Of a DNA stretch of 64,000 bases, positions 9,101-38,625 are shown piece after piece. Below the pieces are notes generated by a model. It worked only from the letters and a program-made list of their open reading frames with translations. It was not told the origin of the DNA and ran no database searches. Each line of letters begins with the position of its first letter. Positions within the stretch are counted from its first letter, which is position 1. The stretch is from Owenia fusiformis (lineage: Eukaryota). The translations under genes were made by a program, and so were the position numbers. The stretch lies in NCBI GenBank assembly GCA_903813345.2, contig CAIIXF020000001.1, forward strand, positions 29,822,001 through 29,886,000, written 5' to 3'.

Positions 9101-12100
9101 TTAAATTCCATGAATAGACTATCGTAAATTGTTTGACCGCAATAGTTTATAGTCTACAGTCAGAGACAGGAGTGGCACCTGAGGTGGTGTGATAACTTCA
9201 ATAGGATATGGGGAATCCCCTTGTAAATCTGATGAAATATTAACTTTTGTACAACTGACTCACCCAAAGTATAAACAGGTACAAGTTGTAACGAGTGCAA
9301 ACTGGTATCCATTGGTGGAAACTTCCTATACAGATATGTCGTAACCTCTTCTTTTATCAACTTACAATCTGAAAATGATTAAATCTTTGTCTGATATGAG
9401 CATTATATTTGTTGTTAAAAGTTTAAGTCTCAAAAATCAACCTTGCTAATTAAAGAATGAATCATTTAATAGATCCATTTAAATCTTACAAAAAACTTAC
9501 AAGCCAACAAGATCATCAAGTTATCAAATAGTAACATATAACCTTCTAAATCAAGATAACCTTAAAAATAAAGATTATCCTGAATCATAAAGTTAGAACT
9601 GTTTGACTTCTTGATCTACCAATGTATTACATATAACTGGAGGAATATACTGGTTTAACAGTATGACTGTTTGACTTTTTAGAAAAATAGCATGACATGC
9701 CAACAAACAAATATTAAACTTAAAATTTTTTACCAAATCCATCAACTGGTATTTGATTTATCAAACATTACATTTCTTTAAAAAAATGGCGGCTATTTTG
9801 AAATGAGTGGCCATATAGAAAATGTGTCCTTAAGTACAGGTCCTTGCCCCATAAGATAAATTCCATAATTTGGTCCATAAGTGGTATATCTAGGTTATCA
9901 AAAGTTGGGCGGGACTCAAGACCAAAGCCAAAACCCACAAGTGAAAGGTTGTGTAGTGAATGTGGGGTAATTGAGGATGAGCTTCACTTTATCACAAGCT
10001 GTACGGAGAACTTTTAAAACACAGAGAACTTTTGTTTGAAACTTTTGTTTGATCTGAAACAGTGCAAATATCCAGATAAACTGTTTGAAACTATTATCTC
10101 TAGTAAAAGCTCTCATGTTAACTTACATTTAGCCAGTATATCACTCTTTTAAAAATTTGGAAAATGATTCAGATTATGTAAACATTTCTAAAAAACACAT
10201 GTATTATGGATACACCACACTGATATTCTGTTATCATACCCTGACATGTGAAACTGATGTAAAGTAGTTTTGTAATATGTAGTTGTAGTTTGTAGTTTTT
10301 TGTACACTGTAGTGACTGATATGTCATTTACATGACATGGTTTTTGAGTCAATAAAAGATATATAAAAAACATATATATTTGATCACTGCACTCATATAA
10401 AGGAATAGACGGATGAATGGATAAACAGACGGAAGACCTCTCTATATCTCTACAAGACGGCTGAAATGTAAAATTGTTAACTTCAGTGATCTCTACAGGA
10501 TTTTTTTTCAAGTGGGTGCAAAATTCGCATTTTCACAATTCTGTCCAAAATTGGTCAAAATATGCCCATTTTCATGATTTTTTCATTTCAAGTGGGTGCA
10601 AATGGATTTTCAGTTGGGTGCAAGCCTATTTTTAGAATCTCAGGTGGGTGCTGCGCCCACTTGCTTTACTGAACTATTCAGATGATACTTTTTAACTAAC
10701 CTCTGCACTCAGGGTAGCCACAAATTTGGTATTCCCTTTACCATGGTAATCTACTTATATTGTAGATCCTGAACAAAAATGACTTACGGGAATTCCAAGT
10801 CTACAAAAAAAGAGTCTAGAATAAAGAAATAGATTTAGCTTAGATTCCAAATCAACAGGACTTAATAGGACTCTGATGCAGTTATTTCATATTTATTAAG
10901 CAAAAGTGAGACAACAGACAAATCAATAGCATCAATTGAAAGGAGCATTCACTCAGAAACAACATAGACATACAATGGGTAAGTGCTTATGATCTTTTAA
11001 GCTTAAGTATAGTATAATCATGCACATTTCTTGTTCATTTGAAGAAAATGGTTTTATCTAAAAATTAGGGAATCAACATAGTCTGACAGAAAAACAGTGT
11101 AAAACATGAAAAGACCATATCATCAAATATGAGCAAGTACTGATCAGAAATCAGTATTAAAGGGGCATCAAGGCCTGTAGAGAGAAAATTTGAAAAAATT
11201 TACTTTTTCTGAGCTATCAGGGCAACATCTGGCTAAACATCTTTGGCATACCTATGAAACATCCAAACTTAAACATATTTTGACACTAGTCCATGATTGT
11301 GGAATAATGTGCTGATTGTTGTACCTTTAATTTTCACAAAATTCATTCAGACACAGAAACATTATCAATCTATAATACTGATAATACCTAATGATTTATC
11401 TTCATACATGTATCTAAATTCTTCTTTTTTAGACCTCCATAGAATGAAAATGCTGCATGGCTTCATAGCACTTACATTTACTGTAGCTCTCTGTAGCTCT
11501 TCTAGTATAACATGCAATGAGTATGATAAAAGATTTAGTCGCCCCGGGGAGGATAATGAGTTCTACTGCAGAGACATATGCACAAAACAATTCCAACACT
11601 ATGAAAAAGTCTGCTTAGCAGACCAAGGTGTAATGGATAACTGTGGTGGTAAGATTCTGATTCAATTTTAGGGTTAATTATACTTTAATTAAAATTTCTG
11701 ATATAAGCTGGGAAAGCCCTGAATAACTGAAGTATAGAATGATTATACAGTGTACATGTATTTAGTCTTCTAATATTTGTTTTTAAATCAAGTTAATAAT
11801 CATGTTGCCCTCATATAAAAGATATACATAGATTATCCTATATGAGGTTCAGGATATTGGGATTATCCCAAGGCCAATATAATATATTTGCCCGAGGGCC
11901 GCAGGTCCCGAGGGGAAATATATTATATTGGCCTCGGGATAATCCCAATATCCTGAACCGACTATAGGATAATATGTTTATCCCATACCAATCTTGGTCA
12001 TCTGGTTCACATTGTTCAATCGTGGAAATATTTTAGAATATTCATGTCCAGTTTTGTTTTCTTGGCTGTGGGCGGATTTTCCTCAAATATTCCCACATTT

Positions 12101-15100
12101 ATTTTCTCGAATTTCCCTTTTTTAAACCATCAAACAGATCCCGATTGTCTGTGTTTTCTCCATTGTCGTTTACAGTCATTACGCGAACGTTACAAATTAT
12201 GAACAAATATGCGAGCGGCGATTATGGTCACTGCCCACTGGAGCGGGACGTAAAGCTATATCTGCCCGCTGATGAAAATATAAGTTTTTACAAACCGGCT
12301 TTATGTACCTGTAACACGGGCTGTAACACGTCCAAGTATGGGATAAATATATTTTGAATTAAATATTTGTTTTATAATATCACTGTCATAACATCTTCTA
12401 TAATTAAACCAGAACAACGGCAACGCCAAAGCGTAGCGAATCCCATCGAACAGAAATGGCTGGCATTTTACAAACAAAATATATAGCAAACCCATAAGAA
12501 AACCCATAAGAAAGGCCACCATTTTCAAAATGGTTGCTCACTAGACAAGTTGTCATCAGCAGAAGTAATATGCTTTTAAGTAGCCACATATAAAATTTAA
12601 AAAAAATCGCCCATGCATACATGTAAATGCTGGCCATTTTATAAAATGGCCACCTACTACCCAAAATGTCATAAGACAGTATGCAATCCTTACCAGTATT
12701 CACATATCAAATATGAACAAAATCGCTCTATTACTTTTTGAATTATAATAAAAAATGTAAAATAACACACATAAAAATGGTGACCATTTTTCAAAATGGC
12801 CGACTACTCCCTAAAGTTTTATTTGACAATGTGCCATGCTTAAGTATTCACATATAAAATATGAACAATTTTCAATATGGCCGCCTTCTACCCAAAATGT
12901 CATTAGACATTAGGCCATGCTTAAAGTATTCACATACCAAATATGAACAAAATCGCTCCACTACTTTTTGACTTACAGTAAAAAATGTTATATAACACAC
13001 GTAAAAATGGCGGCCATTTTTCAAAATGGCCGCCTACTACCAAAAATGTCATCAGACATTGTGCCATGCTTAAAGTATTCACATACCAAATATGAACAAA
13101 ATCGCTCCACTACTTTTCAAGTTACAGCAAAAATCGTAAAAAGACGTGCAAAGGCAGCCATTTTTCAAGATGGCTGCCAGGTATTTCTTCTGTATTTACA
13201 TTTCTAGCTTAATCAATGTCCTATATAACTTTTTTTACATTTAAAACATATTGCTATTACAGTTTTATATGCAGTACCTAAATTACTGTAAAATCGGCAC
13301 TAAAATGGCCGCCATTTTTAAATGAGCGGCCATTTTGAAAATCAGTTTTCGAGCAGAACTTCTACCCCCATTGGGTATATGTGTACAAAATATGAACAAA
13401 ATCGGGCTAACGGTATTTGAGTTATTGCCCGGACGGACGGACAGACGGACGGACGGACGGACGGACGTACGTACGTACGTACGTACGTACGGACGGACGG
13501 ACGGACGGACGGACGGACGGAGGCGTTCCCTATATCCCTCCGAACTTCGTTCGATGGGATAATAAGTCATATGTTAACATTGAAATACATTTATATTTCT
13601 TGTAACAATATGACAATAAATACAATACATATCAACTAGCAAATTATTTAGTCAATAAATATCAACTCCCAAATTGTAATAAATTTTAATTTAAGGTTTC
13701 ATGTTAACATTATAATTAACTGTAACATTGCAATGGGTCAATGAAAATGGAACCATTGTGTTCATACTCATAGTATGTGGGAAACAGGGTTGGGAGTGTT
13801 TTTCAAATGTCCATTCTGAGATGACTCCTTGTTAGTACTGCCATTAACACTTGAATAATATGTATGTTTAAGTCATGACCGTTGAATATCATTTGATATT
13901 CACTGGAAGTCACGTGACTTCCGTTGAATATCGCTAGTTATTTTTTAGTCACGTGTAGGACATGGACCAATAAGAGAGTGAGGAATATGACAGTGATAAA
14001 ATAATCTAAAATATTTCCACGGTTGGTTGAACTTTCTGAACTGTGAGATGACCAAGATTGGTATGGGATAACAAGATCATCCTACAGTCGGTTCAGGATA
14101 TTAGGATTATCCCTTGGCCAATATAATATATCTACCCTTGGGACCTACGGCCCTCGGGCAGATATTTTATATTGGCTATAATCCCAGTATCCTGAACCTC
14201 ATATAGGATAATCTCTATACACAGCATTTTCCCAATTTGTTCATTTTTGGATATTCTCTCATTATAGTTCAAAATATCACTAGAGACCCCATGAACAATG
14301 AAACGAGCAGGTTATCATAGCTAAAATCATGCAAGTACAAAAGCAAAATATTACATTTATATCTTCAGCATATGTTGAGTGCATGCAAGGCCTAGAAACT
14401 ATGAAAGAAAAACTAGAAACTATGAAAGAAAATATGACAGAAAAATTAGAAACTATGAAAGAAAAACTAGAAACTACAAAAGAGAATATGAAAGAAAAAC
14501 TAAAAGCCGCATACATCGGACTATCATTAGTCATTGTTACTCTTTTAGTCATCATAGGTGCCATTGTCTGGCAACTTCTTAAGCAAAGACATCTTAAAAA
14601 TCCACATGAGAGAAATAAGTTACATAATGGTTTACAACCAGCACCTGAAGGTAAGACATTAGCACATATTATTCTAAGAGGGGGGGTTAAAGAATCCAGC
14701 TCTGCCTTGGTTTCAATGTGGCTATTTGGAGCATGTAACGTAAATGATCACAGCTCCTGAACCAGTTGACTGGTTGTATTGAGACTTTCAGGAACAAATT
14801 TCCATAGACCTTTCCTGGTGTGTGCAAAATTTCATTAATGTCACTTGTCTAGTTTAAGAGATATTACCTACTTCAATGGTCTCATTTTTTCTGGTCACCC
14901 TGTATATGCAAAATTCACATAATTATGAACATTTTAAAAAGCCCAGGTTACACTGGGAGCCTCTATATATGGTACTTCTTCATAACACAATCTGTTTATT
15001 CACCAGAATGCAAAATGATTGCCTGGACATATATACTGATGAACTTTTACACTTATATTTCCAGATGCTGTATCACTGACAAGCTCTGCCTAATGATGCC

Positions 15101-18100
15101 TCTGAAGATTGCTGCTGAAAATTAGCCCAAGAAGTTATGTGAATTAAATGTTGAATGTATATACTGTAGTATATTGATATATAATAATCTATGTATTCAC
15201 GGTTGAAAATCTGTCCACTAGTATTCAAGTTATCTATTGGACGGATGGACTTCTTGTAATATATAAATACACTGCCCAACATGTTTTGATTAAGAGCAAC
15301 AGAGAAGCATACACTCTTTACATATAGATAAATTCAGACTGACAGATGGATGGAGGCCCTTACTATATCCCTACAGAACTTTGTTGGGATAATTAAATCA
15401 ACACCAAAATTAGGCGCTAAATCATATGCTAGACTTTTGTTTAAATTTTTTTTAGCCAAAATATCATCTTGAAGAAAAACAAAGGCTATTATTTTTAGCT
15501 CTAAATCAGATGAAACATTTAAACTCAAACATAATTTGAGTAAATGTGGAAAATATTTTATTTTCGTGATCATTTCTCAAATGGAAATGTTGATATAGAA
15601 TGCACACTCAGGTCTCTGTAAAAGTGTATGCTGCATAATACAATATCAGTACGAACATTTGTTTTATCTGATTTCTCAAAATATATGCAAAATGTTAAAC
15701 ACATCATGTAGGGTAGTGATATCTACTATCGTATCACCAGAGTCAATATATTGTATATTGTACAGTAAAACATGCATTATTGAATACATCTCTCTCTTGA
15801 ACACCTATCAACAGTGAACATTTTTATACAGTAATAGTGTTATTTCATCAAAGTCTAGTACTTATTTGTATACTGTAGAAGTAGTGATATATACTATTCT
15901 AGTATCACTAAAGAGCCAATAGATTGTATATTGTACTGTAATTAAAACTACATGTATGAAATCATTAATTTGTTAAATAAAATAATTATATAAATTGTCT
16001 TAAAATGAAGATGTAATGCTAAATGATTTTTTATTTTGTATTCTTCAATAAATTATGATTAAAAAAAACAGATTCAAATACTAGAAAAACAACACCACAG
16101 AGTAGCAGATATCCCATCAAACAAAATAGGTTATACCAAAATCACCCATCATTTTGAACATTTCATGATACTGTAGTCTCTTTTTGGCAAAATCCACACC
16201 CATGACATTGACAATGACACCCTAGGACCTAATACCAATATGATATCAAACTTTAAAATGTGGAGTACATCTCATAAATGTTTTTTTAGTTATCATGAAT
16301 AATCATTATTATTTTTTCTAAAAAAATATAGCCATTTTAAATTGAGCAGCCATATTGGAAATTCCTTCTCAAACAATTAATTTTGAAAATTCTTTCTTCA
16401 ACAGAGGTCCTATGACCCTAAGACATAAGCATACAAGAACACAAATGTGTACAAAATGTCCCCACCAATGGGTGATCCCATCAAATGGTTATCCTGAAAA
16501 TGAGTAGACAAGACTTTACCAACACAATTTGAGGACGGAAAATCCAAAATGGCCACCTTAAAATTTACCCAGAATGCCAAAAATTTAGTCAGTTCTAGAT
16601 TTTCAAACTAAGAACCACCCCTGAAAATTTTTAATTGATCCGTCACACAGTTAACCAGAAAACATGTAAACAAGACTTTACAGACAAGATTTTAGGATGG
16701 AAAATCCAATATGGCTGCCTTGACATTTACCCAGAATGTCAAAAAACTAATCTGTTTCTAGATTTTCATACTAAGAATCATCCCTGAAAATATAACATTG
16801 ATCTACCAAATGATTCACCTGAAAACGCGTAGACAAGATTTTAGGACAGAAAATCCAAAATGGCTGCCTTGACATTTACACAGAATGCCAAAAACCAAAA
16901 AAACTGATCAGATGTAGATTGTCATACGAAGAATCATCCCTGAAAATTTGAAATTGATCTACCAAACGGTTCACCTAAAAACACATAGACAAGACTTTAC
17001 AGACAAGATTTTAGGACAGAAAATCCAAAATGGCTGCCTTGATATTTACTTAGAATGCCAAAAAACTAATCAGATCTAGATTTTTATACTAAGAATCATC
17101 CCTGAAAATTTGAAATTGATCTACAAAACGGTTCAACTGAAAACGCGTAGACAAGACTTTACAGACAAGATTTTAGGACAGAAAATCCAAAATGGCTGCC
17201 TTGACATTTACCCAGAATGCCAAAAAACTAATCAGATCTAGATTTTAATACTAAGAATCATCCCTGAAAATTTAGAATTGATCCACCAAACGGTTCACCT
17301 CAAAACATGTAGACAAGACTTCATAGACAAGATTTTAGGATGGAAAAATCCAAAATGGCCGACAATAAAAAAGTGATTATGAGTTTTTGCTGATTTCTTT
17401 TTACAAAATTATCACATATATCTACTGTTAACAATAACATAGGCTTTTACAACAAAGTACATCTGAAATTATTTATAAAGCTACTAAATAGTTAAAGTAT
17501 GAAAACTCAAAAAACACCATTCAATATGATACAAAGTATTATCGTGCGCTAACTTTTCTTAAGACATTCAAAATGGCTGACATGACTGAGCTAACAGGTC
17601 CAAAACCTAATCAGATGTAGAATGAAGTGAGCTGAACAAGATGTTAAAGTTTTAAAAGCAACTGTGAAGCTGTTTTTCTTAAAGTTTGCAGACAAGGATT
17701 TTAGCATTTGACTTCAAAATGGCCGACAGGAAGTAGGTATCGAGTTAAATTTTTTTCATCCACATCTGTATGCACTCATAAGTTATCCCTGAAAATTTGA
17801 AGGTGATATCTGTAGCGGTTTTGGAGAAAACTCCCGGATGTACAGACGGACGGACGGACGGACGGACGGACAGACGGACGGACAGACGGACGCCCCTAGG
17901 CCGACAATATGGCCCCACACTATGTGGTGGGGACATAATAAAGAGCCAAATAAACCTACTCGTATTTGAGAAATCAAAGATTTTTTTACTAAAAAACTGC
18001 AGCCATTTTCAATTGAGTCAGGCCATATTTGAAAGTTTTTTCTTGGGCAAAAATTCTATTCTCACAAAATGTCAGCCTATGAATTTGGACCAAATCTTTA

Positions 18101-21100: not shown

Positions 21101-23076
21101 CAAGTGCAAGATAACATCCTATTTTTCTTCAGAGGTCTAGTACACATGTCATATATCTTTAATAAGATGTTTGTACTTGGGTATCCTGTAGTTGGAGAGT
21201 GACTTTTTTAGAGTCCATTGAGGCTCATGTTAAACTGGTAAAGATCCATCCTGGTAACAAATTAGCCCGCAAGTAGGTTGATTTGTACCCTTATACTTTA
21301 TCTGTACCTTTATGTGGATATAGTTACCACTGGTTTCTGAAAAGTTTTAGTTAAGACCAAAGTATATTCTTAGGTTACTAAACCAACCAATGAGAGGGGT
21401 CCCCTACCTCACCAATTGATCAGGGTTTCTTTTTCCACCTATCTACCACACAGGAACATCAACCATGGGGAAGATGTCTCCTTTTAGAATATGGAAAGGA
21501 ACAGTGAATTAGATGTATATGGTTTTCTTCATCTCATTTCAGAAATTGAATATTAGTCATACACATACTAAATTGGTTTCTCATAGGCTGGCATCAGCTG
21601 GAAGCAATGGTTTTAAAATGTTTTAAAATATTCTTTATAAATGTGTGTGACATAGAAATAAATTATATTAAACTTAACTAAAACTTTCTTACCTTTTAAG
21701 TAGACTGTAACAGTACATCCAGCCTTAGCGTCATTGACCCCAGGTCCAAGGAACTCAGATTTACTCTTCATTTCCTTCTCTTTGGCCCTTTGATGAGCCT
21801 GCTCTATACTTGCAATACAAAGTGTATTTCTGGGATGGTTGTTTGGTTTTGATCTTGATGGACTAAGCCCAATGCTAGGAAGAGTGTCCTTATCAGTGGC
21901 TTCATCAGTTTCAAATACCCAGTCAACATAGTGTTCATCCTCTACAATATATTTGTGACCATCCTTAGTATCTTTCATTGATGATCTATCTGAGCTACTG
22001 GGAGAAGGACTTGGGGTGTATGTCTCTCTGTTGGTTGATCGTAAATCTACATGACCTAATCCCACATCCACATTGAAATTCTCAACACCTTCCTGTCTCT
22101 GTTTGATATTTTGAAGAATGTATTTTGTTTCTTCAGATTGGGGTTGAGGAAGGGTATCTTCTATAGGTTTGATTGCACTATTAACATCTTCTGACTGTTC
22201 ACTACTATCAACATCCCCTTCCCATTCTAGCTTGATCACTTGTACAATCTGATGGTACGAACATGCAATGTAATCTTCACACATTGCAATCTCATGAATC
22301 GGAAAACTAAACCGTAGATCAATAAGATGTTTGACTTGTTTCTCAGAGGCTCCATTAGTCAAAGCATTAGCCCTTACAGAGTACACACTGACAGTTGCAT
22401 TGTAAGACACAGCAAGGTTGCCACTCTTATCACAGGAAGCAATATAAGATGGGGAATCTTTGGACGCAATCTCATACATGTCTTGTTCCCCATTTTCGTG
22501 TTCTGGACTGTCTTGATGGTTGGACTGTCTCAAAGGTCCAAGATTTTGAATGTCAGAGTTCCAGTATATACGAATGAAGACACAATCAGACTTCAACTTG
22601 GATTCTTCCAAAGTAGCAACATATCCTCCTGGAATGTCATAATATATTATGCATAATTTATTACTGCAGACATTACAGTATTGCACTGAAGCAAATTGCA
22701 ATCCAAGATGAAGGAAAATCTTTTATCCTAGAAGCAACCTTTGAACTCCCCTCCTCCAACATTAAAGTACCAATTAATATCACAATCCCAGACCATAACA
22801 CCAAGGGACATTTCATTCATACTGAAGTCATAACAATATAATACAATAAAAACATGTTTTACCTGCATCATTGTGAATGATACGCTTGACTGCATCTATT
22901 GTCTCTAAAGTGTAGACATAAGGGCAGCCAATGGTGGTCAATGAATGGACCTGTATCTTACAGTTTTCTGTTGCTACAAACACCAAGTCCTTAGATACAC
23001 ATACAGATACTGGCTTGTTCTCCGTAGTGAAGACATCCTGAGAGTTGAAGTGATGACAGGATAGCACTCTCACCAT
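34..23076 (-). CDS. HPS3: Hermansky-Pudlak syndrome 3 protein (BLOC-2 subunit) homolog; 13 coding exons in window, 3' end beyond the left edge
   Basis: Exons 22863-23076, 21693-22628, 9264-9368, 8574-8755, 8073-8189, 7121-7251, 6670-6733, 5130-5299, 3918-4026, 3224-3304, 2725-2821, 1840-1982 and 34-111 have GT-AG boundaries and join in phase into 809 open codons. Motifs MVRVLSCHHFNSQDV, YLYRKF..LHSLQLVPVY, GNWSVYALRNSSPAQIYQDM, HLLQEAHL and LALPYYNMS match recalled HPS3 motifs in the right order. Confidence 0.92.
248..1012 (+). mobile_element. Helentron/DINE-type non-autonomous element (HINE-like)
   Basis: 5' subTIR ATCCCAACGAAC, internal tandem units, (ACGG/ACTG)n, 3' stem CCGAACTTCGTTCG and subTIR GTTCGTTGGGAT. 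Confidence 0.75.
1085..1705. mobile_element. Non-autonomous element with a terminal ~140-bp hairpin
   Basis: Hairpin 1557-1696 with a CGCTTCGCTC loop; inner IR TTTATCCCACGATTA / TAATCATGGGATAAA. Confidence 0.55.
1840..1982 (-). CDS. HPS3: HPS3 coding exon 12
   Basis: ELAASVLKIYIDEG..LCLANLHLALGDMDEASMCIFAMSK; tttcag/gtacat. Confidence 0.8.
2725..2821 (-). CDS. HPS3: HPS3 coding exon 11
   Basis: ATCDQILSIYSNKEPEVLSDVILHSRLTGYSQ; tag/gtgag. Confidence 0.83.
3224..3304 (-). CDS. HPS3: HPS3 coding exon 10
   Basis: EGYGDGVIHYLNHLIFQDTSSKLNLPN; tacag/gtgagt. Confidence 0.83.
3918..4026 (-). CDS. HPS3: HPS3 coding exon 9
   Basis: GSAEESQLALPYYNMSSLPVEEIMEQ..; tacag/gtaact. Confidence 0.87.
4295..4948 (+). 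mobile_element. HINE-like element, second family
   Basis: TGTCACCAC..GATGGTGACAT end motifs, tandem TTTGACCTTGAGAAGGTCA units, (CCGCCAACTG)-like microsatellite. Confidence 0.5.
5130..5299 (-). CDS. HPS3: HPS3 coding exon 8
   Basis: LEFGCQHKTTGPPAYLHLLQEAHLVARS..CESCSLLAQCYC; aag acceptor, gtaagt donor. Confidence 0.85.
6670..6733 (-). CDS. HPS3: HPS3 coding exon 7
   Basis: (S)EGNWSVYALRNSSPAQIYQDM; ttccag/gtatgt. Confidence 0.82.
7121..7251 (-). CDS. HPS3: HPS3 coding exon 6
   Basis: AIPKMDLDICLIGMQPFIGVQDMCVKGRHLVLMSKVE..; cag/gtgag. Confidence 0.85.
8073..8189 (-). CDS. HPS3: HPS3 coding exon 5
   Basis: VVISPILLHAITDTGIETYTTRCHVTALHNIEVVDNVTN; cag/gtaagt. Confidence 0.85.
8574..8755 (-). 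CDS. HPS3: HPS3 coding exon 4
   Basis: ..LVSLSCFISSNREGFLYNIVGSDVKLLSMYPYTSNSKK; in phase with neighbours. Confidence 0.85.
9264..9368 (-). CDS. HPS3: HPS3 coding exon 3
   Basis: DCKLIKEEVTTYLYRKFPPMDTSLHSLQLVPVYTL; cag/gtgag boundaries. Confidence 0.88.
10788..10978 (+). promoter_or_regulatory. Putative promoter/first exon of the nested gene, with kB-like site
   Basis: GGGAATTCC at 10788-10796, ~190 bp upstream of ATGG|gtaagt. Confidence 0.45.
10975..15093 (+). CDS. Nested antisense gene: ~176-aa type I membrane protein with a Cys-rich ectodomain (Grindelwald/TNFR-like candidate)
   Basis: Exons 10975-10978 (ATGG|gtaagt), 11433-11648, 14369-14650 and 15065-15093 (ends TAA). All three introns are phase 1 and join in frame. 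Product: signal-like MKMLHGFIALTFTVALCSS, six Cys, LETMKEK repeats, TM AAYIGLSLVIVTLLVIIGAIVW and a short tail. The last exon is the least certain. Confidence 0.75.
11433..11648 (+). CDS. Nested gene exon 2: signal peptide + Cys-rich domain
   Basis: ttttttag|ACCTCC ... TGTGGTG|gtaag; within ORF 11297-11671. Confidence 0.78.
11825..14219. mobile_element. DNA element with ~180-bp TIRs that are themselves hairpins, in intron 2 of the nested gene
   Basis: 11825-12003 is the reverse complement of ~14047-14219; each arm folds around GGGCCG(C/T)AGGTCCC. Confidence 0.75.
12406..13562 (+). mobile_element. HINE-like element nested in the hairpin-TIR element
   Basis: ATCCCATCGAAC ... tandem AAAATGGCCGCC/CAAATATGAACAAAATCGCTC units ... 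(ACGG)n(ACGT)n(ACGG)n ... CCGAACTTCGTTCGATGGGAT. Confidence 0.8.
14369..14650 (+). CDS. Nested gene exon 3: coiled-coil stalk + TM + start of tail
   Basis: atcttcag|CATATG ... GAAG|gtaag; within ORF 14329-14760. Confidence 0.8.
16432..17939 (+). mobile_element. HINE-like element with a ~160-bp satellite-like array
   Basis: subTIRs TGTCCCCACCA / TGGTGGGGACA, ~5-6 units of ~160 bp at 16500-17360, (ACGG)n at 17845-17890. An inverted fragment lies at ~52400-52730. Confidence 0.7.
18120..18890. mobile_element. Degenerate foldback element
   Basis: CCGAACCTTGTTGGAACAAAA (18371) versus TTTTGTTCCAATGAGGTTCGG (~18610), plus outer diverged inverted arms. Confidence 0.5.
19430..19900. mobile_element. 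Hairpin-ended non-autonomous element (related end at 6580-6655)
   Basis: Shares GGTAGATATGCAT..CCCTCTGGATAAACCCC.TATCCAAAACCTCCCAGTACA with 6580-6655; A-rich core. Confidence 0.55.
21693..22628 (-). CDS. HPS3: HPS3 large coding exon 2
   Basis: Lies within ORF 21613-22701. Acceptor ttccag|GAGGATAT, donor AAAAG|gtaag, phase 1-1. Confidence 0.9.
22863..23076 (-). CDS. HPS3: HPS3 first coding exon
   Basis: MVRVLSCHHFNSQDVF...IIHNDA(G). Donor GT at 22862-22861. An upstream acceptor at 23121-23120 implies a separate 5' UTR exon. Confidence 0.88.
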
Positions 23077-23899
23077 GATTGTTGAATATCTTCAGTATTG
23101 AGTACACTTCAACATTGGTCTGCAAAAGAGATGTTTGATGATATTTGGCTCTCATCATTTGGATGAACTTTTTTTCAGTATGAGATGGTTAGATGGTTAG
23201 GTGAATAGATAAGATGAACAGAGACCAAAATTTAGGTACAGCTGGAAAATAACATTTTGGTAAAAAATTGCTATACCTGCACATGTTATTTTCTGGTACA
23301 TAATAAACTATGAAGGCATGTGTTAATTTCCTTGCTTTTTTCAGGAAAGTATCATTACATTGTCTTCTTTTAGTATATCTGGTAAGAGTTCAATGGGAAC
23401 TCCAGAAAATTCTGATATTTCACACTTTCTATTTTTCCAAATTTTTTTTCAAAGTTTCCAGACAACACAGGAGGTACCATTGACCTGTTTCCAAGTCAAG
23501 TGAATGTTTTTCTGCCAAATTTCAAAATGGCGTTTTCTGCTCGGACATTTTCGTAAATCTCTGGAGGTTGGCCAAACCTAACTCATTCTCAAAATTTATT
23601 TCATTCATTGTGTATCTCACTCCTAGCAAACCACCATATTGGAAATGGGTCGAAAAAACATTCACTCGAACAATTTACAAGTCTTGATTGAAAAAGAAGT
23701 ATTTCAGCACTCCAATACTTGCACGGATGGATGATACTGATGTAAGACACAGTTAGAGACCAAAAGTAAGACCAAAAGTAAGCCGCTGATCTCATTATTC
23801 ATGTTTTAAAGCTTTCGCAGGAAGTAAATCATGCATATTTCACGTCAAAATGACATACAGGTAACCTCTTTTTATTACCTGTTAACTTTCCCATTGACA

Positions 23900-31961: not shown

Positions 31962-32309
31962 TATTTCTTACCTCATTTGATTCTAAAAGTTGTGCCTGTC
32001 TCAAATTGCAGAGGTGTCACTTCAGTCTTTAATTAGCCAATATATTTCCAAATGTCTGCTAACTTCATGCAGGAATTATTTCTGAGTACATTACGAGCAT
32101 TACTGATAGAGGTTCGTCCAGTAACTGTATTTAATCTTATTTGGCAATGCTGGAAATGTACTCAGATCCTGAAGAAACCGGAAATCTATGTTTTTTATTT
32201 TCCCATTGTCTCTCTCATTTCTTGCCCAGTTGCTTGCATCCTATGAAGAGCTTTCCTTTTAACTATTTTCCAGCGACATTTTTAGCGCCCTTAAATACAT
32301 ATCAAGAGA

Positions 32310-32633
32310 ATGAGTACAAAACTTTTAGAAGATGCAAAAGGTACAGGAAAGAATAAAGAGGGTTCTGTACCAAAGAGACACTCTGCTGATGCCCATCCAC
32401 AAGGTGTTAGAGGGGAAGCCTCCAGTGATCCTCAGTTTGTCCATAAACTTGATCCAAAGAATGACATTTGTTGTGAATGCAATCATGTATTACAAGATAG
32501 TATACAGACAGCGTGTGGGCACAGGGTGTGCGAGAGACATATTAATGAAAGGCTAGAGAGAGGAGAAATATATACTTGTCCAGGGGGAGATCAAGAATGT
32601 GTTGAAGTTAATAAAGAAAACAGACACTTATTG
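32310..32633 (+). CDS. TRAF3: TRAF exon: N-terminus + RING
   Basis: CCECNHVLQDSIQTACGHRVCERH..CPGGDQEC; acceptor at 32272-32273, donor gtaagg at 32634. Confidence 0.88.
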
Positions 32634-35600
32634 GTAAGGAACTATGTTGCAATATAAAAATTGGCTTTTGAACATGTAGAAATAAAATGTTGAACATGTA
32701 GCAAAATCAATTTCAATAGTTGGGATTCAATATTGAGTCTAAAAGCATTATTCCCATCATCAAATCAAATTTTAATTCAGTGAATGATGCCATCTATAGT
32801 CCCAAGGGCCATTATCATTTAGATTATTTTTTTGCAAATACATGTATAATTGAAAAATGTCTAAATAAATAGTGAAGTCTGTCTCATAGCTAGCTAAAAC
32901 ACATCTAAGATGTATGTATGCCCAGTTTTAACCATAACCTCGTTATTTTTTCATAATTTGATTATTAATGTCTTTTAATCATTACTTAAATATCCTTTCA
33001 GGCCTTCCCAGATTATTTTGCAAGAAAACATATCTCAACTTTACTTGTGTACTGCCCCAATAAGGAACATGGCTGCCCAGAACAAATACCTTGGAAATCT
33101 TTACAAGTAAGTAACAAGCGTGATCTGACATTACATGAATTTATTTATATTTTTGGAAAAACCTGTTTTACATGTTCCCCATGAACCTAAGTTAAAATTC
33201 TGAAGATTTTCCAAGTTAGCCTTTATTATATGAGAGAGGAAGCGACACTCTTCATTTGATGCTACTGTACTCTTTGCACATGTATTTGAATTCAGATTGT
33301 TCACAGAATGCCTGGCCAAGCAATTATGATTTCATATTTATATTTTCAGGAACATATGGCAAAATGTGATTATATCAAGATTGAATGCAAAAATGAAGGA
33401 TGTAGTGAGCTTATTCTTGCTAAGAATATGGAGGAACATATGAAAAATCAGTGTATCTTTAGAATTGATAGCTGTCCGAAATGCAAAATGCCAACCCCAC
33501 ATGCACTTATTAATGTAAGTTTACATTATGTTCGTGTTAAAATACATTACAAGGAAGAAACAATCCTTTTCTTCAAAGTGATTGATTAATATCATGACAT
33601 TGTACAAATTGTTTTCCTAAAAGTAAAGAGTTTGTATTCACTATTCACTATGTTTATTCATATACATGTATAATAGTACTTTCTGTCTCTTAAGAAATTA
33701 ACAATATTTTCTGCATATGTAGCAATTATTTTATGATGTATTATTACAAGACCTATTCCTCTTCAATACATTCATATTTTTGGTGATAATGAAACTGCTT
33801 CTAATTCCCACCTTTTTATGCATTTCTTTGAATAAAATACAATGATTGACAGAATAGTTCCTTACATTCCAAGCAACATTTAGAGTATGACGAAACTCAC
33901 ATACATACCAAGTATTAGACTGTCGCCCACCCTGGTGTATGTATCAATGATGTATACCGATGTATAATTACTATATGAAATATATGTTTTGCTTATAGGA
34001 TCATTTATTAAATCATTGTGATGAAGAATTAATAAAATGCCCATATAAATGTGGATTGGAGTTTAAAAGAAGGGAAAAGGAAGCCCATGAGAAAACTTGT
34101 ACATCTAAACCTAAAGCCTGTGAATTAAGTTCATTGGGGTGTGATTTTAAGGTAAGAATTGCAGCATTAAAAAATATAGATCAATTAGAATACTTTATAT
34201 GTAATTTGTACACTTATAATAGTCAAATCAAGTACTATACCTCTGGAATAATTTTAAGATGATCTAGGATGAAGGAAAGATCTTGTTCTGTCATTTTGGA
34301 TGATATATGTGAGGTTTCACACAACAGGTTATATTGCTAAAACATATCTGCAACTGTGTTACATTTTAATTAACTACTATGCATAAATATAGTGAATGCG
34401 ATACAGATTTCAGATACGTTGGGCTAAAAACATTGAGCAAAACCTATCTAGCCCAATGTATTAAAAGACTACAGTACTTACAATGTATTATAAGTTATTG
34501 AATGATTTGAAGTGTAATACAGGATATATTCTGCTCGAGAAATTCTGTATTGGAACGAGACAAAGTGGAGTGCCAATACAAAATTTCGAGACAGAATATA
34601 TCCTGTATTGCACTTCAAATCATTCAATAGCGTTTTTATAGTGTGATCTTCTGTATTGCTACTGAGATTGTCCCCTCCGTACCAATATTGGTACAGCACA
34701 TGAACTGACCAATCAGAGGGCTTCATTTTACAGATCATACGATATTATATTTTTCAGTTGCATTCTCATTGTCATGATGCACTCACTGCAGACTTGCCAT
34801 CCTAAAATGAAAAATTTTTGGGGAGATTTAAAAAAAAATTGCGGTACTTTTATGGGAGTTTTTTCAAAATGTTTTTGCGGTAAATTTTGAAAAAAAAACC
34901 GGAGTTTTTACGGGAGATTTTGAAAAAACAGGAGTTTTTACGGGAGATTTTTTAAAAAAGGTATTTTTCGCGGTACATCTTAAAAAACGTGACTTTTTAC
35001 GGAAGATTTCAGAAAAAACGGGAGTTTTTGCGCTAGGTTCTGAAAAAACGGGAGTTTTTACGGGAGGTTTTGAAAATAAATCTTTGGTCTCATAGCTTGT
35101 AAACCATGTGCTGTAGTAAAGCGCTCTGATAATTGGACTACTTGATCAGCTGACACTGTATCATGTTCCCTTAAAAACATTCGCATTTCCCTACTACAAG
35201 CTGCCATGTACTGCTCTCGAAGTAGAAGATCTTTTAAGGCATCAAATGTTTTCTCTGTTTTTGCTAATTCCATCCATCTTGAAAGATATCTTTCTAATCT
35301 ACACATGAACTGGGTCGGTGACTCCTTCAGTTCAGGATGACTAGTGAAAAACTTTTTGCGGAAACCGCTTTCAGTCATTTGATAACATTTAAGGAGTGCT
35401 TCCTTGAGCTTTTCATAATCATCACCAACTAATTGATTTGTTCTATTGTAAACATTGAGTGCTTCACCAGATAAAAGGTTTCCCAAATACATACAATAGT
35501 TTTCCTGTGGCCAGTTTTGACTAATTGCATACCTTTCCATTCTTTCCAAATATGCATCCATACTATCTTTCTCCTCATTAAAAGGTGGCATTTTCGGTGC

Positions 35601-38600
35601 CTTGGGAATTTGTTTTGATTATTTCAAATAAAAAAACGGGAGTTTTTACGGTAGATTTCTGAAAAACGGGAGTTTTTACTTTAGATTTTGAAAAAAACGG
35701 GAGGTTTTACGGTAGATTTTGAAAGAACGGGAGTTTTTACAGTAGATTTCGGAAAAATGGGAGTTCTTAGGGTAGGTTTCTGAAAAAACGGGTGTTTTTG
35801 CGATAGATTTTGAAAAAAACATGAGTTTTTACGGTAGATTTCTGATCTGTTTAGATTATAGATACAACATTTTATTACTTTGGAAACGAATTGATCAAAG
35901 CTAAGTAAAATGTATACGTGGCAATCTGCGTGAGGTTCCATTTTTAGGTTTGGTTTTTCGCGCATGAGCATTAAATCCAGCGATTTAATTGGTTGAAATT
36001 ATTATGACGCATGCGCAGTTAATAAATTAATAAGAACTTATAATCTAAGATAGATGTCACTTACGTTCATTATTTCACAGCAGTCCCTTCCGATAATGCG
36101 CCTTATATTGCTGGAATATTTTGTTTAGCGCCACATAAAAACAAAATGTATTCTCCCGACAGAAGTATGACAGAATATGAACTGGCCCCCGTTTGTGGAC
36201 ATTTGGTGTGCAAACTTATACCGAACTGATCGCAGAAAAGCAATTTGAATCATGGGAATGAAGTACTTTTAAGTTATTTATAAAAGTATCGATTGTGAAC
36301 CATGAGAGCCAATCCTTCTTGGAGTAAAAGAAAGAAGCATGCCTGCAATAATCAAGGTCACAAATTTGTCTTTTAAATACGGTAGATTTCGACAGCAAAA
36401 ACGGAGATTTTACGGGAGTTATACCAAGAATACGGGAGATTTTACGGGAGTTATACCAAAAAACGGGAGATTTTACGGGAGTTATACCAAGAATACGGGA
36501 GATTTTACGGGAGTTATACCAGAATACGGGAGATTTTACGGGAGATTTCAGCAAAAATACGGGAGATTTTACGGGCACATTTTAAAAAAAAATTACGGGA
36601 GATTTTAGTAGAAATACGGTACGGGAGTTTACGGGAGTTTTTACGGGAGAAAACGGTACGGGAGTTTGGTATTTTTTACGGAAAAACAAAAAATTTACGG
36701 GAGATTCCCGTAAAAAAACGGGAGGTTGGCAAGTCTGCACTGTATTGTACAGCTGTATTATTTCTTATAACCAATAATTTTTCAGGGCTCACAAGAGGAC
36801 GTTGAAAAACATGAATCCCTGGATAACATTGAACACCTTGGTTTATTCGCTATTAAATTAGAAAATCAGTCACTTGAATCGAAGACGTTAGAAAGACGAC
36901 TTGAACAAATGCAAAATGAAAAGCAAATATATGAGAAGGAAATGAAGGACCTCGCTGACCATATGGGGAAATTAGTAAAACAATATAGTGCTATGAATTC
37001 TAAAGTTCAAAACATTTCGGTAAGTGTTTTACATCAATGAGCTTGATAATTATTAGGAATTTGTGTTTAAAAAAAGTAAATCTCATATCTGGCCTCTTTT
37101 GATTATTGAATGGTAATCAAAGGTCTGTTTTTTACATTTGCTGAGCTCTTTTTTTTTCATTAGGGAACACAGTCTCAGGGTTGAATGGTACTTTTTCATC
37201 GACTAATGCATGAAGCAAGAACTTGTTGATAGTGGTACTTTTATTGATGTAATTGGTCCATACGTCTTAAATATTTCCCATAGTTTATATAAAACAGAAA
37301 ACCATTTAAACAACATATATCTGAATATCATTGAAAATCATTATTAAAATATATTACCAAAGCTTCACAAAAACTGTAAGGAATACTAACTTCATGTATT
37401 TGTATTTTTAAATTTAGTTAGCAATGGCAAGTCATGCTGAGAAGGTAATATCATTAGAAGATAAATATACATCATTTAAAACTGAGACCGAATCATTGCG
37501 GATGGACTCAATGAACAGTATGGAACGAAGATTGGTCGCTATTGAGAACAAAGAAGACAGAAGTTATACTTCCACTAGTGGGGAAGGGGGAGCTTCCAAA
37601 GAGGCTGTAGGTAAGCATCATGACTGATCTTTGATTTATGGCACAAAAATAACCCATCATTAAAAATTGACCCAGGTCGTAATCTACCTTTGACCTTCAA
37701 AGTTTAGCCTTTTCTGACCTCTTCAGGTATGTGTAACATTTTGAAATTGTTTTATACTGTGTATTATTACTTGTTTAATTTGTCCAAAAGTACATACAGG
37801 TAATTGATCTTTTATTAGATCTCTCTAAAGGAGCTTCATTATTCTGAAATATAGTGACAAATGTCAACCTAAATGCCATTTCAATAACTTAATAAAGAAA
37901 TAATTTTCCCTTGTCCCAGTTAAAAACTCTATGTTGCCCTTTGAAATCATAACTATTGTCGTTTTCAAATATTGTTCAGGCCTTTTTAAGAAATATAATT
38001 CTCTCTATATTTTTTTTGATAACATGAATATTTTCATTTTATTTTAGATGGTTTGAAAACGCAAGTAAGACAACTTGATAGAATGGTAGGACTCCATGAT
38101 GTTCGTTTAGCTGAGGTAGACCTCAGGATGGACTGCAATGACATCACATCTTATGATGGACACATTATCTGGAAGATAACTGGAATTGAACAAAGGAAAC
38201 GTGATGCCGTGAGCAGAAAGACCCTTTCACTGTACAGTCCTCCATTCTACACTAGCAAGTATGGCTACAAAATGTGTGGACGTGTTTATCTCAATGGAGA
38301 TGGTATCGGCAAAGGCACTCATGTCTCCCTGTTCTTTGTTCTAATGAAGGGAGAATATGACAATGTACTTGAGTTCCCATTTCGCCAAAAGGTTTCCTTC
38401 ATGATTCTTGATCAGTCATCCGAGAGGCGTCACCTCCAGGATTCCTTCTACCCAGACCCTAGTAGCACGTCATTCAAGAAGCCAACTGCCAATATGAATG
38501 TGGCATCAGGCTGCCCCCTATTCGTGAGACAAGATGTCCTAGAGAACCAAGGCTATTTGAAAGATGACTGTATTTACATCAAAGTGTCTGCAGACCTCAA

Positions 38601-38625
38601 TGATCCACCTTTAGTACCTTTGTGA
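32310..38625 (+). CDS. TRAF3: TNF receptor-associated factor, TRAF3-like (RING, 5 zinc fingers, coiled coil, MATH); complete, ~583 aa
   Basis: Exons 32310-32633, 33002-33106, 33350-33514, 33999-34151, 36786-37019, 37418-37610 and 38048-38625 join in frame. MATH motifs SLYSPPFYT..GYKMC.RVYLNGDG.GKGTH.SLFFV and RRHL.D.F.PDP.S.SFKKPT..MNVASGCP resemble recalled TRAF3 more than TRAF2/6. The family call is secure; the paralog call is likely. Confidence 0.9.
33002..33106 (+). CDS. TRAF3: TRAF exon: zinc finger
   Basis: AFPDYFARKHISTLLVYCPNKEHGCPEQIPWKSLQ. Confidence 0.88.
33350..33514 (+). CDS. TRAF3: TRAF exon: zinc fingers
   Basis: EHMAKCDYIKIECKNEGC..HMKNQCIFRIDSCPKC.. Confidence 0.88.
33999..34151 (+). 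CDS. TRAF3: TRAF exon: zinc fingers
   Basis: DHLLNHCDEELIKCPYKCG..HEKTCTSKPKACELSSLGCDFK. Confidence 0.88.
34789..36737. mobile_element. hAT5-like element in a TRAF intron, TSD CACTG, carrying a gag fragment
   Basis: CAGACTTGCCA / TGGCAAGTCTG TIRs; ACGGGAG tandem arrays; a second, inverted copy at 49183-50769. Confidence 0.85.
35081..35625 (-). pseudogene. Gypsy/Gmr1-type gag (SCAN-like capsid) fragment
   Basis: PKMPPFNEEKDSMDAYLERMERYA..W..LLSGEAL.VY..DYEKLKEALLK.Y..FRKKF..ESPTQF..RL..YL.RW..LKDLLLREQY; no LTR, zinc knuckle or pol. Confidence 0.8.
36786..37019 (+). CDS. TRAF3: TRAF exon: coiled coil
   Basis: GSQEDVEKHESLDNIEHL..LERRLEQMQNEKQIYEKEMKDL..; ttcag/gtaagt. Confidence 0.85.
37418..37610 (+). 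CDS. TRAF3: TRAF exon: coiled coil
   Basis: LAMASHAEKVISLEDK..MERRLVAIENK..; tttag/gtaagc. Confidence 0.83.
38048..38625 (+). CDS. TRAF3: TRAF terminal exon: MATH/TRAF-C domain
   Basis: ORF 38053-38625 with canonical TRAF-C motifs; TGA stop. Confidence 0.95.

Follow-up and report, generated by a model that had tools for sequence, protein, structure and literature searches.

The window analysed here, a 64-kb stretch of DNA from the annelid Owenia fusiformis, carries on its minus strand the HPS3 gene, to which the Owenia HPS3 protein (1177 aa) maps by tblastn. The 12.2-kb intron 2 of HPS3 houses, in antisense orientation, a small gene encoding the protein CAH1774217.1; the nesting in an HPS3 intron, which had been proposed from the letters of the sequence, was confirmed by the flanking minus-strand exons at 22647-21583 and 9369-9256. 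A TRAF3-like gene (~32.3-38.6 kb) lies on the same strand as the CAH1774217.1 gene, ~17 kb downstream of it. The features are the following, with the evidence for each in brackets:

21583-22647, minus strand: HPS3 exon 2, upstream flank of the host intron (Pfam HPS3_N, 7e-10; tblastn, residues 66-416)
10879-10978, plus strand: exon 1, with a 5' UTR reaching back at least to 10879, the ATG (10975-10977) and the first base of codon 2 (contig X4 record 9, 10879-10977, resuming at 11432)
10979-11432, plus strand: intron 1, GT..AG, phase 1 (splice sites; spliced contig X4 record 9)
11433-11648, plus strand: exon 2, with the signal peptide, ending at ~11506, and residues 27-74 at 11507-11648, the greater part of the six-Cys head (translation; contig X6 record 15, 11432-11627; paralog tblastn, E 1e-13)
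11649-14368, plus strand: intron 2, GT..AG, phase 1, mostly repeat element (splice sites; the junction rests on the public protein model)
14369-14650, plus strand: exon 3, first parts, the end of the head with its last Cys (14369-14382) and the helical stalk (14383-14505, residues 79-119) (translation; contigs X4 records 13 and 14, X6 record 20)
14369-14650, plus strand: exon 3, later parts, the TM helix (residues 120-141, at 14506-14571), then the tail as far as residue 167 (hydropathy; AF2 model)
14393-14499, plus strand: 54-bp tandem duplication of the stalk (Tandem Repeats Finder)
14651-15064, plus strand: intron 3, GT..AG, phase 1 (spliced contigs X4 record 14 and X6 record 20; X1 records 6 and 7 unspliced)
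15065-15176, plus strand: exon 4, with the final 9 codons, a stop ending at 15093 and the 3' UTR (contigs ending at 15160, X4 record 14, and at 15176, X6 record 20)
9256-9369, minus strand: HPS3 exon 3, downstream flank of the host intron (tblastn, residues 384-421, 95% identity)

Gene model and transcript evidence

Joined on the plus strand, the four exons of the CAH1774217.1 gene give a 531-nt frame of 176 codons and a stop, to which exon 1 contributes 10975-10978 and exon 4 contributes 15065-15093; each of the three introns is GT..AG, in phase 1, with a polypyrimidine tract ahead of the AG. The start codon at 10975 is the first ATG of the known 5' UTR (none occurs in 10879-10974), it stands in a good context (ACAATGG) and is preceded by an in-frame stop at 10927. 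At the other end, an ATTAAA at 15143-15148 lies shortly before the contig ends at 15160 and 15176.

The spliced translation is identical, letter for letter, to CAH1774217.1 (UniProt A0A8J1U6Y0, 176 aa), which bears at NCBI the title 'unnamed protein product [Owenia fusiformis]'; the gene model is therefore already public, though uncharacterised. The original prediction of four exons with strong splice sites and all-phase-1 introns on the plus strand thus reproduced the public model exactly. It had also called the gene hidden, which holds for the ORF track, where stop-to-stop ORFs carry only fragments of it (11297-11671 and 14302-14760), but not for the public annotation, in which the gene is present as an unnamed protein, so that the term undescribed had to be dropped. 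We know of no printed description of CAH1774217.1. No paper was found on Owenia fusiformis and TNF receptors; supplements, including that of the preprint on grnd-like receptors discussed below, could list this protein.

Of 14 sequencing runs, 4 were compared with the locus; 10 runs hold part of the stretch, and the RNA nature of all of them is a guess. The joint of intron 1 (10977|11432) was present in contig X4 record 9, and that of intron 3 (14648|15063) in contigs X4 record 14 and X6 record 20, from two studies, the offsets of 1-2 nt being due to alignment ambiguity. Hence, among the junctions that had been proposed for checking, 10978/11433 and 14650/15065 were recovered in contigs, whereas 11648/14369 was absent among the joints listed, and the splicing of intron 2 rests on the public gene model. 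This intron is mostly taken up by a repeat element with inverted-repeat borders (~11824-14219) that carries tandem units of 81 bp as well as a (CGGA)23 microsatellite (13430-13521); a depth of thousands over it in all runs indicates a high-copy repeat. On the exons, the word depth in the contigs (from runs presumed to be RNA) was 3-16, intron 3 was read through unspliced in X1 records 6 and 7, and the raw RNA run X13, of which ~12 in 100 were read, gave zero depth. The contigs differed within exon 3 by one synonymous change, by A120V, V134I, H148N and P152L, and by two insertions of 3 nt each within the TM; these indels keep the frame, and the variants were read as coding constraint. The gene is genuine, expressed and protein-coding, and the evidence for its expression is thin.

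Protein architecture and the paralog

CAH1774217.1 consists of a signal peptide, a ~50-aa head with six Cys, a helical stalk, one TM helix and a 35-aa tail. For the leader, visual inspection and the -3/-1 rule were used. The mature Cys are found at 29, 47, 51, 62, 72 and 78, that is C-x17-C-x3-C-x10-C-x9-C-x5-C. In the 19-residue Kyte-Doolittle analysis, windows above 1.6 cover residues 117-146, and K145, R147 and K150 come after; the hydrophobic leader, the one TM helix and the basic residues following it are those of a type I single-pass protein. The receptor-like type I layout that had been predicted was supported in each of its elements: signal peptide, small Cys-rich head, helical stalk, TM and short tail.

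The stalk is encoded by a 54-bp tandem repeat (2.0 copies, 92% matches, with 21-bp sub-repeats; Tandem Repeats Finder), which translates into an 18-residue repeat and arose through recent tandem duplication; its helix displays a hydrophobic Leu/Met seam with 3-4-4-3-4 spacing. Coiled-coil-type Pfam matches on the stalk (Apolipoprotein, Prefoldin and others) fell far under the cut-offs and were read as composition noise. The AF2 model, built with two sequences in the input, reached a pLDDT of 87-93 over residues 30-90 and comprises a hairpin (35-37/44-46), two short helices (47-50 and 58-63) and a single continuous helix from 66 to 150.

A phmmer search with exon 2 against 1,835,955,588 representatives returned 2 proteins at E ≤ 0.001, CAH1774217.1 itself and CAH1788109.1 (6e-9), and a profile built from both recovered only these 2 among 1051 candidates. 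The latter (A0A8J1UMB5, 177 aa), also from Owenia fusiformis, is the sole relative found among 1.84 billion representatives and is encoded on another chromosome, in a different 39.8-Mb contig. The search for paralogs suggested at the outset thus yielded one by protein search, but no further copy within the 64-kb window by tblastn with CAH1774217.1 and CAH1788109.1. The sequences at hand point to a two-member family, known so far from Owenia only.

The paralogs share their size and their plan (leader, six-Cys head, stalk, one TM, short tail). By region, the identities are 27/52 in the head, 5/22 in the leader, 3/22 (plus 19 gapped) in the stalk, 7/22 in the TM and 7/35 in the tail, and all six mature Cys are invariant, as is the block F-Y-C-R-D-I-C-T; judged by sequence, the six-Cys head is the only well-conserved part. 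By contrast, the stalk of CAH1788109.1 is Pro/Thr/Ser-rich and mucin-like, where that of CAH1774217.1 is a helical repeat, and its unrelated tail ends in D-D-L rather than S-S-A. The model of CAH1788109.1 has a mean pLDDT of 50 and shows strands where that of CAH1774217.1 has helices (47-63), which leaves the fold of the head uncertain. Two sets of matches of CAH1788109.1 were rejected: the 56 Foldseek rows obtained with its model, all unrelated and with E ≥ 2, were counted as meaningless, and the Pfam family STL11_N (E 0.027) scored 14.9 bits, short of its cut-off of 27, with no relevant STL11 literature found.

Comparison with TNF receptors and other small type I proteins

The protein had been proposed to be a Grindelwald/TNFR-like receptor. 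In its full form, this reading makes it a highly divergent single-CRD TNFR of the Grindelwald/BCMA/TACI/Fn14 class, with a hairpin-plus-helices head to which a trimeric TNF-homology ligand would bind, a helical stalk that would pre-assemble the receptor and a tail acting as docking site for a TRAF, perhaps the TRAF3-like one whose gene lies downstream; we regard it as improbable. Kinship of the head with such CRDs failed on every testable sequence-defined feature, namely Cys signature, eight-Cys pattern, Pfam and PDB. According to a preprint (10.1101/2024.07.27.603686), grnd-like CRDs have the signature CxxCxxxC (or CxxCxxC), which is absent from both paralogs: they have C-x3-C alone, and three residues before it stands E in CAH1774217.1 and D in CAH1788109.1. 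The Grindelwald CRD, as described in PMC8024323, combines an X2 hairpin with two intercalated disulfides and a C2 helix-loop-helix, C-x3-C-x11-C-x3-C, for a total of eight Cys. This pattern is missing from the head of CAH1774217.1, which has six; since one Cys alone lies N-terminal of the hairpin, the head is not an X2 module and, since the last two Cys are x5 and not x3 apart, it does not follow the C2 consensus either. By hmmscan, neither exon 2, exon 3 nor the two paralogs gave a match at E ≤ 10 to the Pfam TNFR families (TNFR_c6, stn_TNFRSF12A, BCMA-Tall_bind, TACI-CRD2, BaffR-Tall_bind), a search in which the HMMER filters drop most matches above ~E 0.1 (TNFR CRDs are short); among PDB sequences, 0 of 177,635 matched at E ≤ 10.

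In favour of a TNFR stands a likeness in general plan. Drosophila Grindelwald (6zt0) is also a small type I protein with one small disulfide-rich head, predicted as such in our case, and the same paper (PMC8024323) gives its ectodomain an N-terminal hairpin and two antiparallel helices, in a topology resembling Fn14, BCMA and TACI CRD2; the beta-hairpin predicted for CAH1774217.1, with helices bearing C-x3-C after it, corresponds to this arrangement. Foldseek with the CAH1774217.1 model placed 6zt0 at rank 2 of 4 weak rows (E 6.0, prob 0.08, TM 0.39 by target, rmsd 3.0 over 31 columns). The preprint (10.1101/2024.07.27.603686), moreover, reports an expansion of grnd-like receptors in annelids, one species having 12; the annelid named there is Capitella teleta.

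Fn14 (PF12191), BCMA (PF09257), TACI CRD2 (PF09305) and BAFF-R are likewise similar in size class and topology, but CAH1774217.1 has no Pfam match to them at E ≤ 10 and lacks the cysteine signature. The Atlas language-model features gave 0.79 for an Fn14 cluster, 0.75 for a cluster from molluscs, 15-18% of whose members have TACI/BCMA domains, and, with residues 27-84 alone, 0.75 for a TACI-CRD2 cluster, all below the bar of 0.9, in a measure that gives one shuffled protein in three a score of 0.8 or more and for which the guidance on 4 of the 10 best matches in one family reads 'that family is probably wrong'. The top named Atlas matches were to PRIMA1 (PF16101; 0.80), which is also a small type I protein, of ~160 aa and with a short extracellular part; CAH1774217.1, however, has neither a Pfam match to it nor a proline-rich attachment domain, and the match most likely reflects shared architecture only. 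The Atlas structure search returned bacterial models only (TM 0.21-0.42) and was set aside.

As for the tail, TRAF-binding sites follow the consensus (P/S/A/T)x(Q/E)E or PxQxxD, and class I PDZ ligands end in (S/T)-x-hydrophobic-COOH. The segment APED, which had been considered close to the TRAF2/3 motif, matches a loosened form that occurs in ~10% of random 35-mers, but misses the strict (P/S/A/T)x(Q/E)E and is not kept in CAH1788109.1, whose tail has instead a TRAF6-like P-x-E-x-x-acidic. Similarly, the final S-S-A fits the loose form of the class I PDZ ligand suggested for it, such [S/T]-x-hydrophobic ends being found in 3.5-5% of random 35-mers, but CAH1788109.1 ends in D-D-L. More favourable to a TNFR is the resemblance of P-A-P-E-D to PVPAT, given as the TRAF3 motif of BAFF-R in PMC2989778; against it, P152L, present in one contig, hits the only conserved juxtamembrane P-x-E. 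With 35 aa, there is no room for a death domain. The TRAF3-like gene on the same strand would suit a TRAF-recruiting receptor, although gene neighbourhood weighs little in animals, and a complex prediction that paired its MATH domain (translation of 38023-38622, residues 30-198) with tail residues 142-176, run without controls, scored 0.02 against a mark of 0.34, which speaks neither for nor against.

A probable lineage-restricted receptor-like surface protein

We consider it likely that the locus holds an expressed, annotated Owenia gene, antisense in HPS3 intron 2, which encodes a receptor-like 176-aa type I protein of a two-member Owenia family. The best reading of CAH1774217.1 is that of a lineage-restricted receptor-like surface protein, which has no place in any named family, the TNFR superfamily included; sequence, Pfam and PDB searches found no function-bearing homology. 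In our proposal, the leader would be cleaved around Ser26 and the six Cys would pair as three disulfides in a compact ~50-aa head. From the architecture, this head may be the working module, binding an extracellular partner. The stalk would be a mere spacer, which in CAH1774217.1 takes the form of an amphipathic helix with a Leu/Met seam that continues directly into the TM helix and probably brings the protein together as a dimer or trimer, and in CAH1788109.1 that of a mucin-like Pro/Thr/Ser rod; the short, fast-evolving tail would act through linear motifs only. A conserved head, a spacer stalk and a short tail suggest that the protein functions in the manner of a small receptor or recognition molecule at the cell surface.

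The weak pointers to TNFR-type CRDs mean that the family could be not truly orphan. In the boldest version, which we hold to be less probable still than the divergent receptor discussed above, the two Owenia proteins would be a new, lineage-specific single-CRD TNFR offshoot with a remodelled six-Cys CRD, carried in CAH1774217.1 on a helical stalk self-associating for a trimeric TNF ligand, with signalling via P-A-P-E-D through the TRAF3-like adaptor of the gene ~17 kb away. Least probable of all is that the transcript is young and restricted to this lineage and codes for a protein with little or no function, from either a de novo or rapidly decaying gene or an annotation of low-level intronic transcription: the lack of relatives outside Owenia, the low exon depth with zero X13 reads, the unspliced X1 contigs, the repeat-derived stalk and the non-conservative H148N and P152L are in line with it, but CAH1788109.1, though diverged elsewhere, retains all six Cys and a head identity of 52%, a pattern of selection on a folded domain, and the canonical splice sites, first-ATG start and polyA signal are intact, the indels preserve the frame and AF2 is confident on the head even from two sequences.

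As it stands, a lineage-restricted receptor-like protein of this kind matters little: it is an uncharacterised small membrane protein, predicted rightly from raw sequence and already annotated. The paralog pair offers, nevertheless, a tidy case of one conserved head carried on two unrelated spacers, a helical repeat and a mucin-like rod. The finding would gain in weight if the head turned out to be a TNFR CRD in remodelled form: with six Cys and a coiled coil as its stalk, it would extend the range of CRD modules known and would provide a naturally pre-oligomerised TNFR to study.

A nested gene in an intron of HPS3

The plus-strand gene had been predicted from sequence as four exons with strong splice sites and phase-1 introns, of which the ORF track displayed only fragments. 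Both points proved accurate: all the introns are phase 1, the joined exons form a 531-nt reading frame, and stop-to-stop ORFs give two fragments of the gene.

Coding exons of the nested gene (GT..AG borders, polypyrimidine tracts)
10975-10978, plus strand, first coding exon
11433-11648, plus strand, second coding exon
14369-14650, plus strand, third coding exon
15065-15093, plus strand, fourth coding exon

The translation, P0001 (176 aa), is letter-for-letter the public protein CAH1774217.1 / UniRef100_A0A8J1U6Y0, an 'unnamed protein product [Owenia fusiformis]' from a 62.2-Mb contig, which makes the window DNA of an annelid. The gene is thus hidden, as originally described, for a stop-to-stop ORF track, but not for the public databases, and it is confirmed as real and already annotated. 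No ATG precedes the start codon at 10975 in the known 5' UTR, which reaches back to at least 10879 and has an in-frame stop at 10927; at the other end, an ATTAAA at 15143 lies upstream of contig ends at 15160 and 15176.

The host gene was mapped by tblastn of the Owenia HPS3 protein (P0003, 1177 aa).

Pieces of HPS3 found by tblastn of P0003
23076-22861, minus strand, exon 1
22647-21583, minus strand, exon 2
9369-9256, minus strand, exon 3
reaching 111-31, minus strand, ten further pieces

Intron 2 of HPS3 (12.2 kb) contains the whole nested gene, which has the opposite orientation, in agreement with the antisense placement first proposed; two minus-strand ORFs, 22831-23091 and 21616-22722, match Pfam HPS3_N. 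The 13 tblastn pieces (23076-31, minus strand) correspond to P0003 residues 1-810, and HPS3 continues past the window start. The identity of exon 2 was 91% by tblastn and 95% over 90% of the ORF in a word-index search. Residues 384-416 are matched twice, at the end of the exon 2 stretch and in exon 3; therefore, the public exon 2/exon 3 boundary is unlike the plain ORF reading.

Transcripts, variants and the intron 2 repeat

Transcript contigs were compared over 10800-15400 in 4 of 14 sequencing runs, three of which (X1, X4 and X6) are presumed, as a guess, to be RNA. Two of the three predicted junctions were found in spliced contigs, within 1-2 nt of alignment ambiguity: 10977 is joined to 11432 (intron 1) in X4 record 9, and 14648 to 15063 (intron 3) in X4 record 14 and X6 record 20, which come from different studies. 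The intron 2 junction was absent among the contig pieces listed for the four runs, and was taken from the public gene model. Against splicing, X1 contigs pass intron 3 unspliced and, against expression, no read fell on the exons of the nested gene in X13, a run of raw RNA reads of which about 12% was read, and exon word depths were only 3-16.

The contig variants, namely one synonymous change, A120V, V134I, H148N, P152L and two in-frame 3-nt insertions in the membrane helix, fit a coding sequence. The five substitutions are spread across X1, X4 and X6 contigs, and both insertions (window 14527-14536) occur in one X1 contig, where they lengthen the helix by two hydrophobic residues. These variants are probably allelic and, therefore, suggest high heterozygosity at this locus.

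Intron 2 is occupied by an element of about 2.4 kb (11824-14219) with inverted-repeat borders, inside which 81-bp units are repeated in tandem and a (CGGA)23 microsatellite occupies 13430-13521.

Inverted-repeat arms of the intron 2 element (131 nt, 89% complementary)
11873-12003, first arm
14046-14176, second arm

In each run, word depths over this element range from thousands up to hundreds of thousands, so it belongs to a repeat family that is transcribed and present in many copies. Units like these were seen by eye, in ORF translations, near 42.4-43.3 kb and 59.3-60.0 kb.

Relatives and the TNF receptor question

When exon 2 was compared by phmmer with 1,835,955,588 representatives, two proteins were found at E <= 0.001, P0001 itself and the Owenia paralog P0002 (CAH1788109.1 / A0A8J1UMB5, 177 aa; 6e-9), encoded on a separate 39.8-Mb contig. 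A word-indexed search gave one protein out of 3 candidates, and a profile of the two paralogs recovered only P0001 and P0002 among 1051 candidates.

P0001 had been proposed to be a minimal Grindelwald/TNFR-like receptor. At E <= 10, with exon 2, exon 3 or either full-length paralog, Pfam gave no TNFR family and no family over its cut-off, and the paralog profile matched none of 177,635 PDB sequences. The Grindelwald ectodomain is described, in PMC8024323, as an X2 hairpin whose two disulfides are intercalated, followed by a C2 module C-x3-C-x11-C-x3-C, for a total of eight Cys; by comparison, the head of P0001 has six (C-x17-C-x3-C-x10-C-x9-C-x5-C), with a single Cys ahead of the hairpin. At the first Cys of CxxCxxxC, the grnd-like CRD signature given in a preprint (10.1101/2024.07.27.603686), the two paralogs have E or D.

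Foldseek with the P0001 model gave four matches, all at E > 5, one of them to Grindelwald in 6zt0 (E 6.0 and prob 0.08; rmsd 3.0 across 31 columns; TM 0.39 by target), and a wide structure search was dominated by matches to the long helix and not to the head. The P0002 model was weak (pLDDT 50) and unlike that of P0001 in the 47-63 region; its Foldseek matches were dismissed as noise. Language-model features approached an Fn14 cluster (0.79) and a mollusc cluster bearing TACI/BCMA (0.75), as did residues 27-84 alone with TACI-CRD2 (0.75), all below the 0.9 bar, and the search tool labels the family 'probably wrong'. The structural and feature searches are two weak leads in agreement, against several defining features that fail. 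Descent of the head from a TNFR CRD is unlikely and, judged by sequence-defined features, P0001 would not be assigned to the TNFR superfamily; by its fold, it may be a candidate.

The strict TRAF2/3 consensus is (P/S/A/T)x(Q/E)E. The tail APED, read originally as close to this motif, falls outside it, and about 10% of 35-mers, shuffled or random, contain a loosened form. The C-terminal S-S-A fits a loose form of the PDZ-type [S/T]-x-hydrophobic pattern, an ending found in 3.5-5% of 35-mers, and about 0.5% carry both; since the patterns were picked after viewing the sequence, all these figures overstate significance. None of the P0001 tail motifs is kept in P0002, whose tail has instead a TRAF6-like P-x-E-x-x-acidic; the sole common element, a juxtamembrane P-x-E, is affected by P152L in one contig. 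Read in a different register, the tail has P-A-P-E-D, similar to PVPAT, the TRAF3 site of BAFF-R (PMC2989778).

The plus strand also carries, at about 32.3-38.6 kb (window 32295-38625), a TRAF gene that looks complete.

Exons of the TRAF gene
32295-32657, plus strand, putative RING exon, Cys/His-rich by eye, no Pfam match
33290-33589, plus strand, Pfam zf-TRAF
33999-34262, plus strand, Pfam zf-TRAF
38023-38622, plus strand, MATH, best PDB match human TRAF3 (1.8e-77)

The MATH exon scored 1.8e-77 with TRAF3, versus 2.6e-58 with TRAF2 and 7e-20 with TRAF6. This TRAF3-like gene, whose start is some 17 kb downstream of the nested one, points away from the HPS3 start; its position is suggestive for the TNFR reading, though gene linkage in animals carries little meaning. 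Within a TRAF intron, a 186-aa open frame (35058-35618, minus strand) matches the SCAN domain (1.7e-09), a fold derived from retroviral capsid, and probably represents what is left of a retroelement Gag.

Architecture of the protein and its paralog

The hydrophobic leader of P0001 probably ends at a Ser run (residues 23-26), and the mature head spans about residues 27-78, with Cys at 29, 47, 51, 62, 72 and 78. The stalk (79-119) consists of an 18-residue repeat, in which Leu/Met spaced 3-4-4-3-4 would form a straight hydrophobic seam on a helix; its DNA is a tandem duplication of 54 bp, with 2.0 copies and 92% matches. Next come one hydrophobic segment (windows of 19 residues score >1.6 across residues 117-146) and the 35-aa tail, K/R-rich at its start. 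The AlphaFold2 model, built on a two-sequence alignment, has pLDDT 87-93 over residues 30-90, with a hairpin (35-37/44-46) and short helices (47-50 and 58-63) in the head, and an unbroken helix, 66-150, running from the last two Cys via the stalk through the membrane.

P0002 has the same plan, but its own stalk, rich in Pro/Thr/Ser, and another tail.

Identity between P0001 and P0002 by region
Leader, 5/22 identical
Head, 27/52 identical, all six Cys and F-Y-C-R-D-I-C-T invariant
Stalk, 3/22 identical, 19 more positions gapped
Membrane helix, 7/22 identical
Tail, 7/35 identical

As the head is conserved and the other regions have diverged, the comparison says that the head would be the selected, working part and the stalk an interchangeable spacer. 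P0001 is a type I membrane protein of small size and receptor-like build, restricted to its lineage, in which the head would presumably act as a binding module, carried by a stalk that may be a self-associating helix.
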